From sequence record LR595868.1: 42,927 nt of DNA, one strand, 5' to 3'. Below the pieces are notes generated by a model, which saw only the letters and a program-made list of their open reading frames with translations, ran no database searches and was not told the DNA's origin. This stretch comes from Escherichia virus mEp460_4F5. The position numbers and the translations under genes were made by a program. Within the stretch, counting starts at the first letter, position 1. Each line of letters opens with the position of its first letter. This document shows, in pieces, positions 21,736 through 37,240 of this stretch.

Positions 21736-22833
21736 TCAAGAGGTCTTATTTCTGCTCTTTTGGAGCTCTTCAAAACGATTATGTAAAGATTTCGGATACA
21801 GTTCGGTATATACCTGCCATAGCACGTTTAATGAACGATGCCCTGTAACTTGGGCGACTTCCTCAATACTAAAGCCAGCCTCAAATAAGCGACTTGCCCC
21901 TTCTCTACGCAAATCATGGTATCGCAGATCTTTAATACCTAATTTGCTTCTTACTCTCTGAAATCCCGCAGTAACAGAAGTGCTGTTATATGGAAAAATG
22001 AATTCCGATTTTTTGGGCTGTCGTTGGACGATATCCCAGGCTTCCCCAAGCAAGGCTACTTTCATGTGGTTGCCTTCCTTTTTGCGTGGATCTTTCCTGT
22101 CTCTTACGAGTATAGATTTTTGTTCTTGGTCGAGATCTTCCCATCGTAACCGGCATACTTCTCCGATTCGCATACAGGACCACACAGAAAATTTGAGGAT
22201 ATCAACGAACGGAATTTTTGAGCATTTATGAGTAGATCGTTGTTGAAGGCCTTCAATGAGCATGTCCAGTTCATCAGATGCTGGTCTACGATTACGACGG
22301 TTTGATTTACCAATCAAACCAAGTTTAAGTAGATATGGACGAGCGCTTTTCGCCGGGTTTGATGTGTAATTAATTCCGTATACAGGTTTGGCCGCATCCA
22401 GAACACTGCCAAGATAACTAACATCGTGGCTGACTGTTGCTGGACCTGCACCAGCGTTGTTTCTTAGCCTACAATGTTCAATTACGTCATTTTCTGTCAG
22501 TTCGGATAGTTTGATCGCGGAGATGTCACTATCCATAAGCAGTTCCAGCACATATCTTTTAGTACGACCTGCTTTACCTCCGGCATTTGGGTCATTTAAA
22601 TATTTGTGTAGTAAGTCACGGACTGTAAGTCCGTCAACTGCATTTGATGATGGAATGCCATATAGATCTAATTCCATCACTTTCTGTGTACCCCATGTTT
22701 TGGCATGGGCATGTTTAGGGAATGTTTTGCTTTCCCTGTAAGTGATAACACCTTTTTCTTTGATAATCACATTACAGCGATAGCGTGGTGTGCCATCGGA
22801 TTTTAGTCGTTTCTCTATGTTATAGTACGCCAT
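21736..22833 (-). CDS. int: Tyrosine integrase
   Basis: 365 aa; C-terminal catalytic region with the R ... H..R ... Y pattern (LRYHDLRREGASRLFEAG ... GHRS ... YTELY); GAGG ribosome-binding site about 8 nt upstream. Confidence 0.9.
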   Translation of the reverse strand: MAYYNIEKRLKSDGTPRYRCNVIIKEKGVITYRESKTFPKHAHAKTWGTQKVMELDLYGIPSSNAVDGLTVRDLLHKYLNDPNAGGKAGRTKRYVLELLMDSDISAIKLSELTENDVIEHCRLRNNAGAGPATVSHDVSYLGSVLDAAKPVYGINYTSNPAKSARPYLLKLGLIGKSNRRNRRPASDELDMLIEGLQQRSTHKCSKIPFVDILKFSVWSCMRIGEVCRLRWEDLDQEQKSILVRDRKDPRKKEGNHMKVALLGEAWDIVQRQPKKSEFIFPYNSTSVTAGFQRVRSKLGIKDLRYHDLRREGASRLFEAGFSIEEVAQVTGHRSLNVLWQVYTELYPKSLHNRFEELQKSRNKTS

Positions 22834-22850
22834 TACACGACCTCGTTATT

Positions 22851-23090
22851 TCGGGTTCCCATAAATCGTGGGAACCTGTGCGGGAACCTAACGCGAGAAA
22901 AATAGCCTGAAATGTTCAAAAATGCACGATAATCCTGAAACACAGAAAACTAATCAAACCAGCGTGATGCCTGAGAAAACTGGCGCTTACTGGAGTTCTC
23001 GGTTTAGCATTGCTCCTATGCTTGATAGGATGTACCGTTTTTGAAAAACAAATAGTTATATACTTTGTGGGAGCCTATTGGGAACCCGGC
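22851..23090. repeat. Cluster of GGGAACC-type repeats upstream of int (candidate integrase arm-type or regulator binding sites; possible attP region)
   Basis: At least five copies in about 240 bp: GGGTTCCC (about 22853), TGGGAACC (22869), CGGGAACC (22881), TGGGAGCC (23067), TGGGAACCC (23079); the first two form an inverted repeat. Confidence 0.4.
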
Positions 23091-23172
23091 GTTTTCATTT
23101 CAAGGTGTAATCCATACGCGGCTTAAGAATGAGATATAATGCGACTTTTAGTGTTCCGCTTGAGAGGCCATG

Positions 23173-23706
23173 ATGCTTACCCTGGACGAGATAGGTCAAT
23201 CAGTACGTAACAATATCCAGTTGATTATTGATCATGTCGGCTTACCTCTTGCTGTTGGTCCGCTCAGTGATGATGATTACAAGATTCTGTGTGGTGGCTA
23301 TGGTGAGCTTGAATGGGACTATGCGTTAAGTACCTATGGCAACTCCAGAGAAAAGTATGAGTTCTGCATAAAACTTGTTCAGCAAGGTCGGGTTCAGGGA
23401 ATACCATCAGGAGCAGCAATTTGTGTTTATGGGGTTGAAGAAAACATCTTTCGTATCCATATGATCGAAAGGTTTTCTAGAGAAGATGAATCTCACCCAT
23501 TGAAAGGGCGCATGGTTTTACTCACTCTTATGAGTGCTTTTATATTTTGTAAAGCTGTTGAATGTAAAGTTGTCCACATTGTAGAGCCAGTACCAGAACT
23601 GGTGCAGTATTACGAGTCTTTTGGTTTCCGCATGGAACAGTGCGGTTATGTGATGTCGGCAGTCATTGATGAGCTGCAGGATATCTTTCTTAAATTTGCT
23701 CAGTAG
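23173..23706 (+). CDS. Hypothetical protein, AT-rich accessory gene (weak GNAT-like C-terminal pattern)
   Basis: 177-aa ORF on the strand opposite to int and the early-left operon; GAGAGG ribosome-binding site; composition visibly more AT-rich than the phage core. Confidence 0.5.
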   Translation: MLTLDEIGQSVRNNIQLIIDHVGLPLAVGPLSDDDYKILCGGYGELEWDYALSTYGNSREKYEFCIKLVQQGRVQGIPSGAAICVYGVEENIFRIHMIERFSREDESHPLKGRMVLLTLMSAFIFCKAVECKVVHIVEPVPELVQYYESFGFRMEQCGYVMSAVIDELQDIFLKFAQ

Positions 23707-23902
23707 GTATAGACGAGAAGGGTCTACAAATTGTAGGATACCCGTCCAGATTACCTTAAAGGTACATCTATGGCAGTCGTTTTGTGCTTAAACTACTAAG
23801 AAACGATGTCACCAATCGACATGATCGATTGGCATAAGTTAGCGAAACAAGCTAGCTTTAAAGAAAGGGTTAGAGACGCCTTTACTGTCTCGGGAGTTTT
23901 CT

Positions 23903-24076
23903 ATGAAAGATCAAAAAGCAACCAAGCCACAGGTTAAGTTCGACACAATGAAAGCATTCGCAGGTATGGGTGCTGCTGTTGAAGTTCTGATGAAGGCTGC
24001 TCCTAATGCGTTCACTCACGCTACTGTCTCTGGTAAAGAGCAGCAGGGTAAGCTTCGTCGTCGCAAAGCAGCATGA
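23903..24076 (+). CDS. Small hypothetical protein (57 aa), not in the ORF track
   Basis: ATG at about 23903 preceded by GGGAG at 6-nt spacing; product MKDQKATKPQVKFDTMKAFAGMGAAVEVLMKAAPNAFTHATVSGKEQQGKLRRRKAA; followed directly by a strong terminator. Confidence 0.4.
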   Translation: MKDQKATKPQVKFDTMKAFAGMGAAVEVLMKAAPNAFTHATVSGKEQQGKLRRRKAA

Positions 24077-24097
24077 TCATAGCTGGTGCTTTTTGAA

Positions 24098-24122
24098 AAC
24101 CCGCCTTCAGGCGGGTTTTTCT
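24098..24122. terminator. Bidirectional intrinsic terminator
   Basis: CCCGCC-TTCA-GGCGGG hairpin flanked by A-run/T-run on both sides; lies between the end of the small + gene and the end of the minus-strand PrtN-like gene. Confidence 0.6.
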
Positions 24123-24404
24123 TTAGTGATGTTCTTTGTCCTTCTGTTTGACTGTTCTGACCTGTTCCCACTCGATACGTCCTTCTTCTCGCCTTTTGTC
24201 TATGTATTCCGCAAGATCTTGAATATTGATGCAACGTTTTGCTTTTTGTGATGTGCCGATGCGATATGTTGGAACGGGCAACTTACAAGCGTTTGCTTTT
24301 GCTTCTGCCGTGGCTGGACTCATACCAAAGTACTTTTGGCTAACTGCTGAGAGTTCAATGTTTGGGGTATTGAATTCAGCCATCAGTAAAAACAAGGTGT
24401 TCAT
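24123..24404 (-). CDS. PrtN-family winged-helix DNA-binding protein (candidate excisionase / recombination directionality factor)
   Basis: 93 aa from the ATG at 24404 (GGAG about 7 nt upstream); resembles PrtN/excisionase-like proteins (MNT.FLLMAEF ... KYFG ... LPVP.YR.G); last gene of the minus-strand early operon, near int. Confidence 0.55.
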   Translation of the reverse strand: MNTLFLLMAEFNTPNIELSAVSQKYFGMSPATAEAKANACKLPVPTYRIGTSQKAKRCINIQDLAEYIDKRREEGRIEWEQVRTVKQKDKEHH

Positions 24405-24440
24405 AATTTTCTCCATCAAAACCGGCTGCACCCGGGAAAA

Positions 24441-25013
24441 TCATAATTCTGTGCTGGTGGCAGGAATTAATTTCTGCCAGATAGCGGAAACATATTTTGC
24501 CTGATGACGGGCATCAGCCAGGGCGTTGTGCCGTTCGCCATCGAAAGGCATGTCCATTTTGGGGTCGAATCCGATGGAACGCCCAAGCGTAACGATCGTG
24601 CGTACATCGTGGTCATTCCAGTACGCCCACGGGCAGATTTGTCCTGCTCGCTCGTAAGCTCCACGTAAAATTACGTTGTCGAAGGTGGCCCCGTTACCCC
24701 AGACTTTTAAATATTTCGTATTGTCTGCGTGCCGGTTAATGAAATGGTTTAGTTCTGAGAGAGCATCGCTGATCGACAAAGTATCATCAATACAGATTGC
24801 AGCTCGCGCTTCAGGGCTTTGTTTCAACCACCACAGGATGGTATCGCCGTCAGGTGTAGCTCCTTGCTTCATAGCACTGTCTAGGCTGACAACCGCATAG
24901 AATTCTTGTCCGATGTCTCCGGTTTCTGGAGTGAAGAACACCGCGCCAATGGAAACGATCGGTGCATCCTTATTTTTCCCCATCGTCTCAAGGTCGATCA
25001 TTAAGTTGTTCAT
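24441..25013 (-). CDS. DEDDh 3'-5' exonuclease (DnaQ-like)
   Basis: MIDLETMG near the N-terminus (Exo I motif), WGNGATFD (Exo II) and H.ALADA near the C-terminus (Exo III); start overlaps the upstream stop (ATGA). Confidence 0.75.
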   Translation of the reverse strand: MNNLMIDLETMGKNKDAPIVSIGAVFFTPETGDIGQEFYAVVSLDSAMKQGATPDGDTILWWLKQSPEARAAICIDDTLSISDALSELNHFINRHADNTKYLKVWGNGATFDNVILRGAYERAGQICPWAYWNDHDVRTIVTLGRSIGFDPKMDMPFDGERHNALADARHQAKYVSAIWQKLIPATSTEL

Positions 25014-32526: not shown

Positions 32527-32579
32527 AGGTCGGTCATGAGCCTGTTAATGACATCCCAGCCCATTGTGATAAATCGTGA
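32325..32579 (+). CDS. Hypothetical small protein (C-terminal roughly 65 residues protein-like)
   Basis: 84-aa ORF in another frame, overlapping the previous ORF; begins with GTG in the track. Confidence 0.35.
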
Positions 32580-33528
32580 TCTTGCATGCCGTATTGGTCT
32601 GAATGAGGCAATTGTGTTGCAGCAGCTTCATTACTGGCTGAATGAAACGAATTCCGGCACTGAGCATGGCGGAATTCGCTGGGTTTATAACACGACAGAA
32701 CAGTGGCTGGAGCAGTTTCCGTTCTGGTCAGAGTCCACTCTGAAACGCACATTTGCAAGCCTGAAATCACTTGGGGTTTTGCGTCGCGAGCAACTCAATA
32801 AATCGAAGCGTGACATGACCAACTTCTACACGATCAACTATGAAAGTGAGCTTTTAGAAGAGGTCAAAGTGAACGAATCCATCAGGTCAAAATGCACTTC
32901 TCCATCGGGTCAAAGTGACCTGATGGATGGGCGCAAAATGACACGATCCATTGGTTCAAAACGACACGCTGTCATCGGGTCAAAATGGCCCAATGATCTT
33001 ACAGAGAATACAACAGAGATTACTACAGAGAATAAAACCTCTTCTCGTCCGGACGCTTCGCAACCGGACACGCAGATGGCTGAACAGGATTTTTTAACTC
33101 GCCATCCTGATGCGGTTGTATTCAGCCCTAAAAAGCGCCAGTGGGGAACGCAGGATGATTTGACCTGCGCACAGTGGCTCTGGAAAAAAATCATCGCTCT
33201 GTACGAGCAGGCCGCCGAATGTGACGGCGAAGTGGTACGTCCTAAAGAACCGAACTGGACAGCCTGGGCAAACGAAATTCGCCTGATGTGTGTACAGGAT
33301 GGGCGTACTCACAAACAAATCTGCGAGATGTACTGCCGCGTCAGCCGCGATCCGTTCTGGTGCCGTAACGTGCTCAGCCCGTCGAAGCTGCGGGAAAAAT
33401 GGGATGAGCTTTCCCTGCGCTTATCGCCGTCCGTCAGCACGTACACCGAAAAACGCGAAGACCCGTACTTCAAATCCAGTTACGACAACGTGGACTACAG
33501 CCAGATCCCGGCAGGATTCAGGGGGTGA
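32536..33528 (+). CDS. Replication initiator / replisome organiser (lambda O-like arrangement with internal origin)
   Basis: 330 aa; N-terminal winged-helix-like region; origin iterons lie inside the gene (next feature), as in lambda O. Confidence 0.7.
   Translation: MSLLMTSQPIVINRDLACRIGLNEAIVLQQLHYWLNETNSGTEHGGIRWVYNTTEQWLEQFPFWSESTLKRTFASLKSLGVLRREQLNKSKRDMTNFYTINYESELLEEVKVNESIRSKCTSPSGQSDLMDGRKMTRSIGSKRHAVIGSKWPNDLTENTTEITTENKTSSRPDASQPDTQMAEQDFLTRHPDAVVFSPKKRQWGTQDDLTCAQWLWKKIIALYEQAAECDGEVVRPKEPNWTAWANEIRLMCVQDGRTHKQICEMYCRVSRDPFWCRNVLSPSKLREKWDELSLRLSPSVSTYTEKREDPYFKSSYDNVDYSQIPAGFRG
32881..32988. repeat. Origin iterons (four copies of about 15 bp, CATCGGGTCAAAATG-like)
   Basis: CATCAGGTCAAAATG (about 32881), CATCGGGTCAAAGTG (32904), CATTGGTTCAAAACG (32950), CATCGGGTCAAAATG (32974); spacing about 23/46/24 bp; followed by an AT-rich stretch with repeated ACAGAGAATA. 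Confidence 0.65.
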
Positions 33529-36244: not shown

Positions 36245-37240
36245 GTGACCGTGAGAGCACTACTGACCCCTGAAATTGCCCCGCGTATGGGGATCGTATT
36301 GTTCAGGCCCGGTTCAGAGCTGATGCCCCTGTTTATGCAGGGGCGTGTCCTGCTGGAGCCTGAGCCGGAACGTTATTCATCTTTCGCCAGTGGTGCCGTT
36401 CCGGCGGCATCACAACCGCTGGCGGATGATCCTGCCGTTCGGGCCGTGTTCCGCAATGAGGCAGTGATCCGTCGTGCTGGTGGCGTGGAATGTCTTGAAA
36501 GCTGGTTACTTCGTGAAAAAGGCTGCCAGTGGCCTCATTCCGACTGGCACAGCGAGAACATGACAACAATGCGACACGCTCCGGGCGCAATCCGTCTGTG
36601 CTGGCACTGCGATAACCAGCTGCGCGATCAGTTCACGGAACGGCTGGAATCAATGGCAACGGATAACTGTACCCGCTGGGTGTTGTCTGTTGTGCGTCGG
36701 GATCTCGGTTTTGATGACAGTCACGTTGTGACAATGCCGGAACTGTGCTGGTGGCTGATTCGTAATGACCTGGCGGATGCCTTACCGGAAAGTGCAGCCC
36801 GTAAGGCACTGAGATTACCGAAGCCTGTTGTGCCGTCTGTCACCCGGGAAAGTGACCTTGTGCCTTCGGTTCCCGCCACCAGCATCATCCAGAATAAAGC
36901 GAAAAAGGTGCTGGCGCTGAAAGTGGATCCGGAGTCGCCGGAGTCTTTTATGTTACGCCCAAAACGTCGCCGCTGGGTTAATGAAAAGTACACGCGCTGG
37001 GTTAAGACACAGCCGTGTGCATGTTGTGGAAAACCTGCTGATGATCCCCACCACCTGATAGGTCACGGTCAGGGTGGAATGGCTACAAAAGCGCATGACC
37101 TCTTTGTGTTGCCTTTGTGCAGAAAGCATCACGACGAGCTGCATGCGGATACCGTGGCATTTGAAGAGAAGTATGGCTCCCAGCTGGAGCTGATATTTCG
37201 TTTTATCGATCGTGCACTGGCAATTGGCGTGCTGGCCTGA
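36245..37240 (+). CDS. DUF968-family protein (nin-region protein with Cys/His cluster)
   Basis: 331 aa; C-terminal CACCGK ... HH ... H motif; start is either the GTG at 36245 or the GTG at 36251 (GAGG 5 nt upstream of the latter). Confidence 0.55.
   Translation: MTVRALLTPEIAPRMGIVLFRPGSELMPLFMQGRVLLEPEPERYSSFASGAVPAASQPLADDPAVRAVFRNEAVIRRAGGVECLESWLLREKGCQWPHSDWHSENMTTMRHAPGAIRLCWHCDNQLRDQFTERLESMATDNCTRWVLSVVRRDLGFDDSHVVTMPELCWWLIRNDLADALPESAARKALRLPKPVVPSVTRESDLVPSVPATSIIQNKAKKVLALKVDPESPESFMLRPKRRRWVNEKYTRWVKTQPCACCGKPADDPHHLIGHGQGGMATKAHDLFVLPLCRKHHDELHADTVAFEEKYGSQLELIFRFIDRALAIGVLA

Follow-up and report, generated by a model that had tools for sequence, protein, structure and literature searches.

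Organization of the locus

The window, meaning the whole 42,927-bp stretch of DNA that was analysed, belongs to a lambdoid, mEp460-like phage whose integration site is the 5' end of E. coli dusA, and the region discussed here is 98.5% identical to phage mEp460. The minus strand carries int (21736-22833), an ORF encoding a 365-residue tyrosine integrase of the dusA-associated integrase family, with a Pfam PF00589 match at residues 189-346. Among the genomic loci encoding Int homologues, 55 of 79 are adjacent to dusA; there, the APMxDWTD motif of dusA is encoded on the strand opposite to int, and the median distance between this motif and the start of int is 169 bp. At the junctions of E. coli prophages, int likewise adjoins dusA. 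The intergenic interval 22834-23169, upstream of int, contains the repeats that are the main subject of this work. The sequence-only reading had described this interval as non-coding, which does not hold for positions 22922-23044, outside which all the repeats lie and where the plus strand encodes dusA', a surrogate 5' end of host dusA comprising 40 codons (MHDNPETQKTNQTSVMPEKTGAYWSSRFSIAPMLD, followed by RMYRF and a stop).

On the other side of attP from int lies rdfN (24123-24431, minus strand), which encodes an excisionase, or recombination directionality factor (RDF), of the PrtN family (Pfam PF11112, E = 4e-23; phrog_1300 'excisionase'). The true start of the gene is probably an internal Met at codon 10, and in prophages it resides at the attL end. 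The PrtN-type RdfN family has been shown to provide the RDF of dusA-specific integrases (PMC8409611). As attP is located 5' of int and the excisionase gene lies across attP, int and rdfN end up at opposite ends of the prophage. The module had been proposed to deviate from the lambda plan, and with respect to the placement of attP and the excisionase gene it does; dusA-specific elements (PMC8409611) and the KplE1 paradigm (PMC2951348) already provide examples of such an organization. A terminator thought to separate attP from the excisionase gene was not recovered, as a scan of 23600-24600 gave one weak match elsewhere, on the plus strand at 24471-24490, which is beyond rdfN and no more than shuffled sequences give.

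The attP core and its target in dusA

The attP core (23008-23030) was defined by alignments of attP, attB, attL and attR. The crossover alignment comprised the window, dusA of strain K-12 (attB), the attR of strain SCU-484 and the attL of strain 350, and it confines the crossover to the interval between the diagnostic bases 23023 and 23026, within the codons for APMLD. This position rests on the junctions of two strains together with the K-12 attB, since the left flank of SCU-484 is not cleanly attB-like. The prophage-derived phage records phiSTEC1575-Stx2k, PhiR40_1, PhiR47_1 and PhiR55_1 all have ends at window positions 23022-23025, as do 32 of 45 related segments, and in hundreds of E. coli chromosomes the match breaks off at 23022-23025, continuing into dusA. 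At the opposite prophage junction, the 5' end of host dusA is joined to window position 23026 onward. Inspection of prophage integration junctions had been suggested as a check on the repeats, and it places the core, and with it the crossover, between the two repeat groups described below. An imperfect dyad (CCTAT-GCTTG-ATAGG, 23015-23029) is found inside the core, which corresponds to the 21-bp semiconserved repeat of PMC4482086.

The phage segment 22922-23025 shares 80.8% identity with the first 104 bases of host dusA, and in phage SKA5 the same ORF as dusA' carries the annotation 'tRNA-dihydrouridine'. The attR of SCU-484 encodes the phage-derived MHDNPETQ...APMLD in frame with the host-derived WTDRHCRYF. 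These alignments indicate that integration gives dusA a replacement in-frame 5' end of phage origin. The idea that the target might be a host tRNA gene did not hold, as ARAGORN finds no tRNA in 22500-23500 and the host identity seen here is with the dusA 5' end. Sequence similarity with phage SKA5 and the SCU-484 prophage runs out directly after the last repeat (23086-23088), with different cargo genes following, and the functional unit is therefore taken to be 22852-23088 (~237 bp), which nearly coincides with the interval originally singled out (22851-23090).

The variable cargo slot (window 23089-24122) starts exactly past the last putative arm site. In the window it holds two genes of unknown function, orf178 (23170-23706, plus strand; phrog_4350) and orf57 (23903-24076, plus strand; phrog_2741). 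The corresponding slot of the SCU-484 prophage contains Panacea-domain genes, and SKA5 likewise diverges from the window at this point. The slot genes of both the window and SCU-484 are co-oriented with the host dusA promoter at attL, so in a lysogen the displaced host promoter might drive them, and reading of the slot past the far arm from this promoter is a possibility.

Some further observations concern the junctions. The sequence GCTTGAGAGG at 23158-23167 repeats the core sequence GCTTGATAGG (23020-23029) at a distance of 138 bp; this second occurrence is probably due to chance and overlaps the orf178 ribosome-binding site. The host flank of the SCU-484 attL (L179:13395-13600) has a different short 5' end (MPAESHTVYPAYRFSIAPMLD...) instead of the K-12 dusA 5' end and adjoins zur, with yjbL/yjbM absent; it may be the relic of an earlier dusA-targeting element. 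In E. coli AH02, an intact attP region (96.4% identity) is found on a separate 43,680-bp replicon (NZ_CP081704.1), which is apparently the excised circular phage assembled as a record of its own, and a total of eight matches fall on plasmid-labelled records.

A cluster of GGGAACC-type repeats on both sides of the core

At least five copies of a GGGAACC-type motif had been reported upstream of int, and this count stands: there are four exact copies, one on the minus strand (22854-22860) and three on the plus strand (22870-22876, 22882-22888 and 23080-23086), and a fifth copy, GGGAGCC (23069-23075), with one mismatch to GGGAACC, all inside 22852-23088. With their flanks, the five copies share the consensus T/C-GGGA(A/G)CC-Y. 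They fall into two groups spanning 22852-22889 and 23068-23088. In the int-side group (three repeats, 135-172 bp from the crossover), site 1 (22852-22861, minus strand; TGGGAACCCG) precedes the int ATG by 19-28 bp and is inverted relative to site 2 (22869-22877, plus strand; TGGGAACCT) and site 3 (22881-22889, plus strand; CGGGAACCT). The last two are direct repeats, with a period of 12 bp between the copies at 22870 and 22882. The far group (two repeats, 43-63 bp from the crossover) consists of far site 1 (23068-23076, plus strand; TGGGAGCCT), 43 bp from the crossover, and far site 2 (23079-23088, plus strand; TGGGAACCCG), which follows with a period of 11 bp (23069 and 23080) and forms the outer edge of attP. 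An inverted pair 7 bp apart, also reported previously, was confirmed with the copies taken as 8-mers (GGTTCCCA / TGGGAACC, 22854-22861 and 22869-22876), the spacer being 9 bp with 7-mers. The outermost copies of the cluster form a perfect 10-nt inverted repeat (CGGGTTCCCA / TGGGAACCCG).

By chance, GGGAACC is expected ~4.7 times in the whole window and ~0.03 times per 240 bp, and the sole exact copy outside the cluster is found at 36868. No other 7-mer in the window combines rarity and clustering in this manner (at most five copies in total, four of them inside 240 bp), and in 7 of 200 dinucleotide shuffles some 7-mer did so. Taken alone, the clustering of GGGAACC is moderately, not overwhelmingly, significant.

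Conservation in close and distant relatives

A scan of viral contigs returned near-identical E. coli prophages only, which were of use for a conservation footprint and not for covariation. Across 43 distinct close relatives, little or no variation is seen at the int-side sites (none at site 1, almost none at site 2), and variable positions are found in the 7-bp spacer (22862-22868) and at bases 22879-22881, a pattern that reads as a footprint over the int-side sites. On the far arm, phage SKA5 has GGGATCC at far site 1.

Distant relatives were collected by tblastn of phage records and by a genome scan with one genome per species. Seven other elements encode integrases 34-69% identical to Int, namely YeP2 (Yersinia), IME1369_02 (Morganella), Kp4882-1 (Klebsiella), C5a (Pseudoalteromonas), SMHB1 (Salinivibrio), AS1 (Marinobacter) and BcepIL02 (Burkholderia). 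All seven have two direct repeats with an 11-12-bp period just upstream of int, often accompanied by one or two inverted copies, and two further direct repeats ~45-65 bp beyond the core. The dusA-like core itself is found ~165-200 bp from the int start, except in Kp4882-1, in which no dusA-like sequence was found and the core was not located. An inverted copy equivalent to int-side site 1 is present in YeP2, in Morganella IME1369_02 and at loci L097, L118 and L124. The motif that fills this layout is element-specific, the seven relatives having CAGCACCCC, GGACACC, AGTCACCC, AGTCTCCC, GTGCTCC or TTGCTAC. The int-side motif nevertheless recurs on the far arm of the same element in seven of eight elements including the window, i.e. 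in six of the seven others (own-motif counts of 2, 2, 1, 1, 0, 2, 1 and 2), and match counts on far arms between unrelated motifs are mostly 0. The window motif, as GGTTCCC, has two matches on its own far arm and none on the other seven far arms. A motif common to both arms within one element is typical of arm-type sites.

The arrangement on the int side was also evaluated in a genomic set of 68 non-redundant loci, using as criterion an exact 7-mer pair with 9-14 bp spacing within 100 bp of int. Such pairs were found at 34 of the 68 loci, compared with 11 of 260 control regions (Fisher p = 4e-18) and 110 of 3,400 shuffles, and pairs with a further inverted copy at 13 of the 68 loci, compared with none of the 260 controls and one of the 3,400 shuffles. 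Phytobacter, the closest relative outside E. coli (Int 83% identical), has AGGTTCCCA, AGGCTCCCA and an inverted GGTCCCC, from which the window motif can be seen as a lineage variant of a family theme, RGnnnCCC.

The predicted N-terminal domain of Int

An AlphaFold2 model of Int, built with 61 homologues, has a mean pLDDT of 84.8 and three domains. The N-terminal domain (residues 2-58) is predicted to consist of three strands (2-10, 16-26 and 29-38) and a helix (41-58), with pLDDT values of ~84-96 as 10-residue block means in the full model and 89 when the domain is modelled by itself. It is followed by a low-confidence linker, a helical core-binding domain (71-171) and the catalytic domain (from 186). 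A DNA-binding fold of three strands and a helix is shared by the arm-binding domains of the lambda and Tn916 integrases and by AP2/ERF domains. In a Foldseek search the whole Int model gave alignments of 346-378 columns to the Tn1549 integrase and to full-length lambda Int (1z1g, 5j0n), and a Foldseek search with the N-terminal domain alone gave nothing significant. Nor did the domain match any sequence family in Pfam, NCBIfam or the PDB, profile searches against the PDB included. A weak match to PF24624 was set aside as a family assignment for the N-terminal domain because it covers residues 72-146, which are outside it. Residues 1-66 of Int (22636-22833, minus strand) seem to represent an unannotated domain family.

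Residues in strands 2 and 3 of this domain track the arm motif across genera. GKY[IV][YH]RE pairs with CAGCACCCC in 10 loci, GKH.HRE or GKRIHSE with G[GT]ACACC, and KG[VI]IT[YF]RES with AGG[TC]TCCC, the last in both the window and Phytobacter. RdfN is 47-54% identical between elements, and because the two proteins diverge together, covariation with the arm motif does not tell which of them, Int or RdfN, reads the repeats.

A model of attP with five putative arm-type sites

Since the repeats are located on both sides of the dusA crossover, they are most likely integrase arm sites. We consider it probable that positions 22852-23088 constitute the complete attP (~237 bp) and that the five GGGAACC-type repeats are putative arm-type sites for the N-terminal domain of Int. 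The proposal that the repeats are candidate attP arm sites is in keeping with a core situated between the two groups and with a layout shared by eight family elements whose motifs differ from lineage to lineage. Such arm sites would be an ordinary feature of a known integrase family, albeit one apparently not described for that family before.

According to this model, the N-terminal domains of Int would hold the arm sites and the core-binding and catalytic domains the core (~23008-23030). Bending of the DNA, possibly by IHF at 23046-23058, would fold both arms back onto the core to form an intasome, and strand exchange with the dusA codons for ~APMLD would take place at 23023-23026. Integration would leave one junction composed of the int-side arm and the 5' end of phage dusA' fused to host dusA, and another in which the host dusA 5' end adjoins the far arm; excision would additionally need RdfN (24123-24431). 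The sequences themselves show the repeats, where attP lies and a conserved layout filled by lineage-specific motifs, and the domain structure comes from prediction; Int binding, DNA bending and autoregulation are steps that we infer. The candidate IHF site (23046-23058, plus strand; AAACAAATAGTTA) matches WATCAANNNNTTR at 12 of 13 positions, with the core on one side and the far arm sites on the other. Matches of this quality are not enriched in the window (34 observed, 39 expected); on visual inspection, YeP2 and Morganella have similar 12/13 matches in the corresponding position.

The most serious alternative is that the repeats bind RdfN and not Int, with RdfN oligomerizing on them, bending the arms for excision and repressing int. 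This would account for the direct pairs at 11-12 bp, approximately one helical turn, as described for RDF sites (bioRxiv 10.1101/784983), and RdfN does diverge between elements together with the motif. The KplE1 RDF also regulates int (PMC2951348). What speaks for Int as the reader is that one and the same motif occupies the outer ends of both arms, that the additional N-terminal domain predicted for Int needs a DNA target, that the strand 2-3 residues of this domain track the motif, and that five sites split 3+2 equal the arm-site count of lambda. In lambda, P2 and 186, RDF sites are usually on one arm, between the arm-type sites and the core. On balance, we regard RdfN as an improbable ligand of these repeats in place of Int.

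Still less credible is an explanation in which the int-side copies serve as operators through which a transcription factor controls divergent int and dusA' promoters, with no role in recombination, the far copies being incidental. The int-side sites do fill nearly all of the space from the int Shine-Dalgarno sequence to the start of dusA', and the dyad with its 7-bp spacer resembles the operator of a dimeric protein. The far copies are, however, difficult to dismiss as incidental, as seven other elements have a far pair that keeps its distance from the core, in six of them with the int-side motif of the element itself, and the boundary of sequence conservation falls exactly past the far pair; moreover, the module comes with no linked candidate for such a regulator. 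That a G+C-rich heptamer accumulated by chance, for which it can be said that 11 different 7-mers reach four copies within 240 bp in the window (the shuffles average 1.8), has a negligible probability and is effectively refuted by the comparative sequence results, given how few shuffles yield a cluster of a 7-mer this rare (five copies in the window), the enrichment over the 68 loci, the footprint in close relatives and the presence of the motif on both arms.

Possible regulation of int and dusA'

Assignment of the repeats to the arms of attP leaves room for a regulatory function. The int-side repeats precede the int ATG by 19-56 bp and that of the divergent dusA' by ~33-70 bp, the two start codons being separated by an 88-bp spacer (22834-22921). 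With int and rdfN at opposite ends of the prophage, int is not readable from the early-left operon, and its promoter is consequently expected within this spacer. Given that the int-side copies are 19-56 bp before the start codon, the promoter would either overlap them or be upstream of them. A scan of 22600-23300 with the sigma-70 consensus found no promoter in the 88-bp spacer. By-eye promoter candidates, e.g. a conserved TATTTT block, were dropped because they are without a -35 element.

For the IntS integrase of KplE1, self-repression of int has been shown (PMC2951348), and by analogy Int bound at the int-side sites probably also represses its own promoter. The alternative reading of the repeats as int regulatory sites is in this respect compatible with arm sites and does not compete with them. 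The int-side sites could likewise act on the promoter with which the element provides dusA (PMC8409611). A more speculative extension, which we think doubtful, is that the int-side sites are a shared operator of the divergent int and dusA' promoters. If this were true, both the synthesis of Int and the expression of dusA, the repaired tRNA-modification gene, would depend in a lysogen on how much Int is present, such that a phage recombinase would control a host housekeeping gene.

Relation to known integration systems

The module agrees with the dusA-associated integrases (Farrugia et al. 2015, PMC4482086; Durand et al. 2021, PMC8409611) in all four of the defining features examined: the integrase belongs to the same family (55 of 79 homologue loci adjoin dusA); integration targets the dusA 5' end where it codes for APMLDW; the element supplies a new dusA 5' end; and a PrtN-type RdfN is encoded across attP. 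The element in the window is a lambdoid E. coli phage and not a genomic island. The two family-defining papers describe the 21-bp core repeat only and do not contain the word 'arm' (PMC4482086, PMC8409611). Full-text searches of the literature pairing dusA with arm-site terms found nothing relevant, with incomplete coverage, so that an earlier description is possible. What appears to be new are the arm repeats and their family-wide layout, the general organization being already known for the family and for KplE1-type modules.

The proposed attP resembles that of lambda in having a length of ~240 bp and five arm-type repeats split over two arms around a short core, and Int may resemble lambda Int in an extra N-terminal domain, here predicted to consist of three strands and a helix; the whole model aligns with full-length lambda Int. 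The attP site lies 5' of int and not 3' as in lambda, and int and the RDF gene are at opposite prophage ends, unlike in lambda, which makes a common pL-type transcript impossible. The RDF is a PrtN-type protein and not a lambda Xis, integration occurs inside a protein-coding gene that the phage repairs, the arm motif is a different one, and the N-terminal domain has no detectable sequence similarity to that of lambda Int.

The attP sites of P2/186 and mycobacteriophage L5 provide another parallel, in that each arm has its arm-type sites as direct-repeat pairs spaced by approximately one helical turn; their integrases are of other lineages, and they have other motifs and targets than the window. 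With KplE1/HK620-type modules (Panis et al. 2010, PMC2951348) the window would share an att arm that overlaps the integrase promoter region, and int and RDF genes without a common promoter. From such geometry, negative autoregulation of int by Int and the RDF has been predicted to be widespread (PMC2951348). KplE1 differs in that IntS targets a tRNA gene and the RDF is TorI.

dusA is a frequent integration site across the Proteobacteria for prophages, including Stx-converting phages, and for genomic islands. A ~237-bp attP with five arm sites would allow precise borders to be assigned to such prophages and islands, and would define a minimal attP for integration vectors. The pairs of N-terminal domains and arm motifs may also serve as a natural set for studying or re-engineering arm specificity. 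From the layout one would predict that int is self-regulated and, possibly, that the phage controls how dusA is expressed. These findings leave the general view of tyrosine-integrase biology as it was.

Repeats in a possible replication region

A second set of repeats was observed elsewhere in the window, inside a 330-residue ORF (32536-33528, plus strand). Five direct repeats of the GGTCAAA(A/G)TG type are found at 32862-32990, four with an exact GGTCAAA and one with GGTTCAAA, and these look like origin iterons inside a lambda O-like replication initiator gene.
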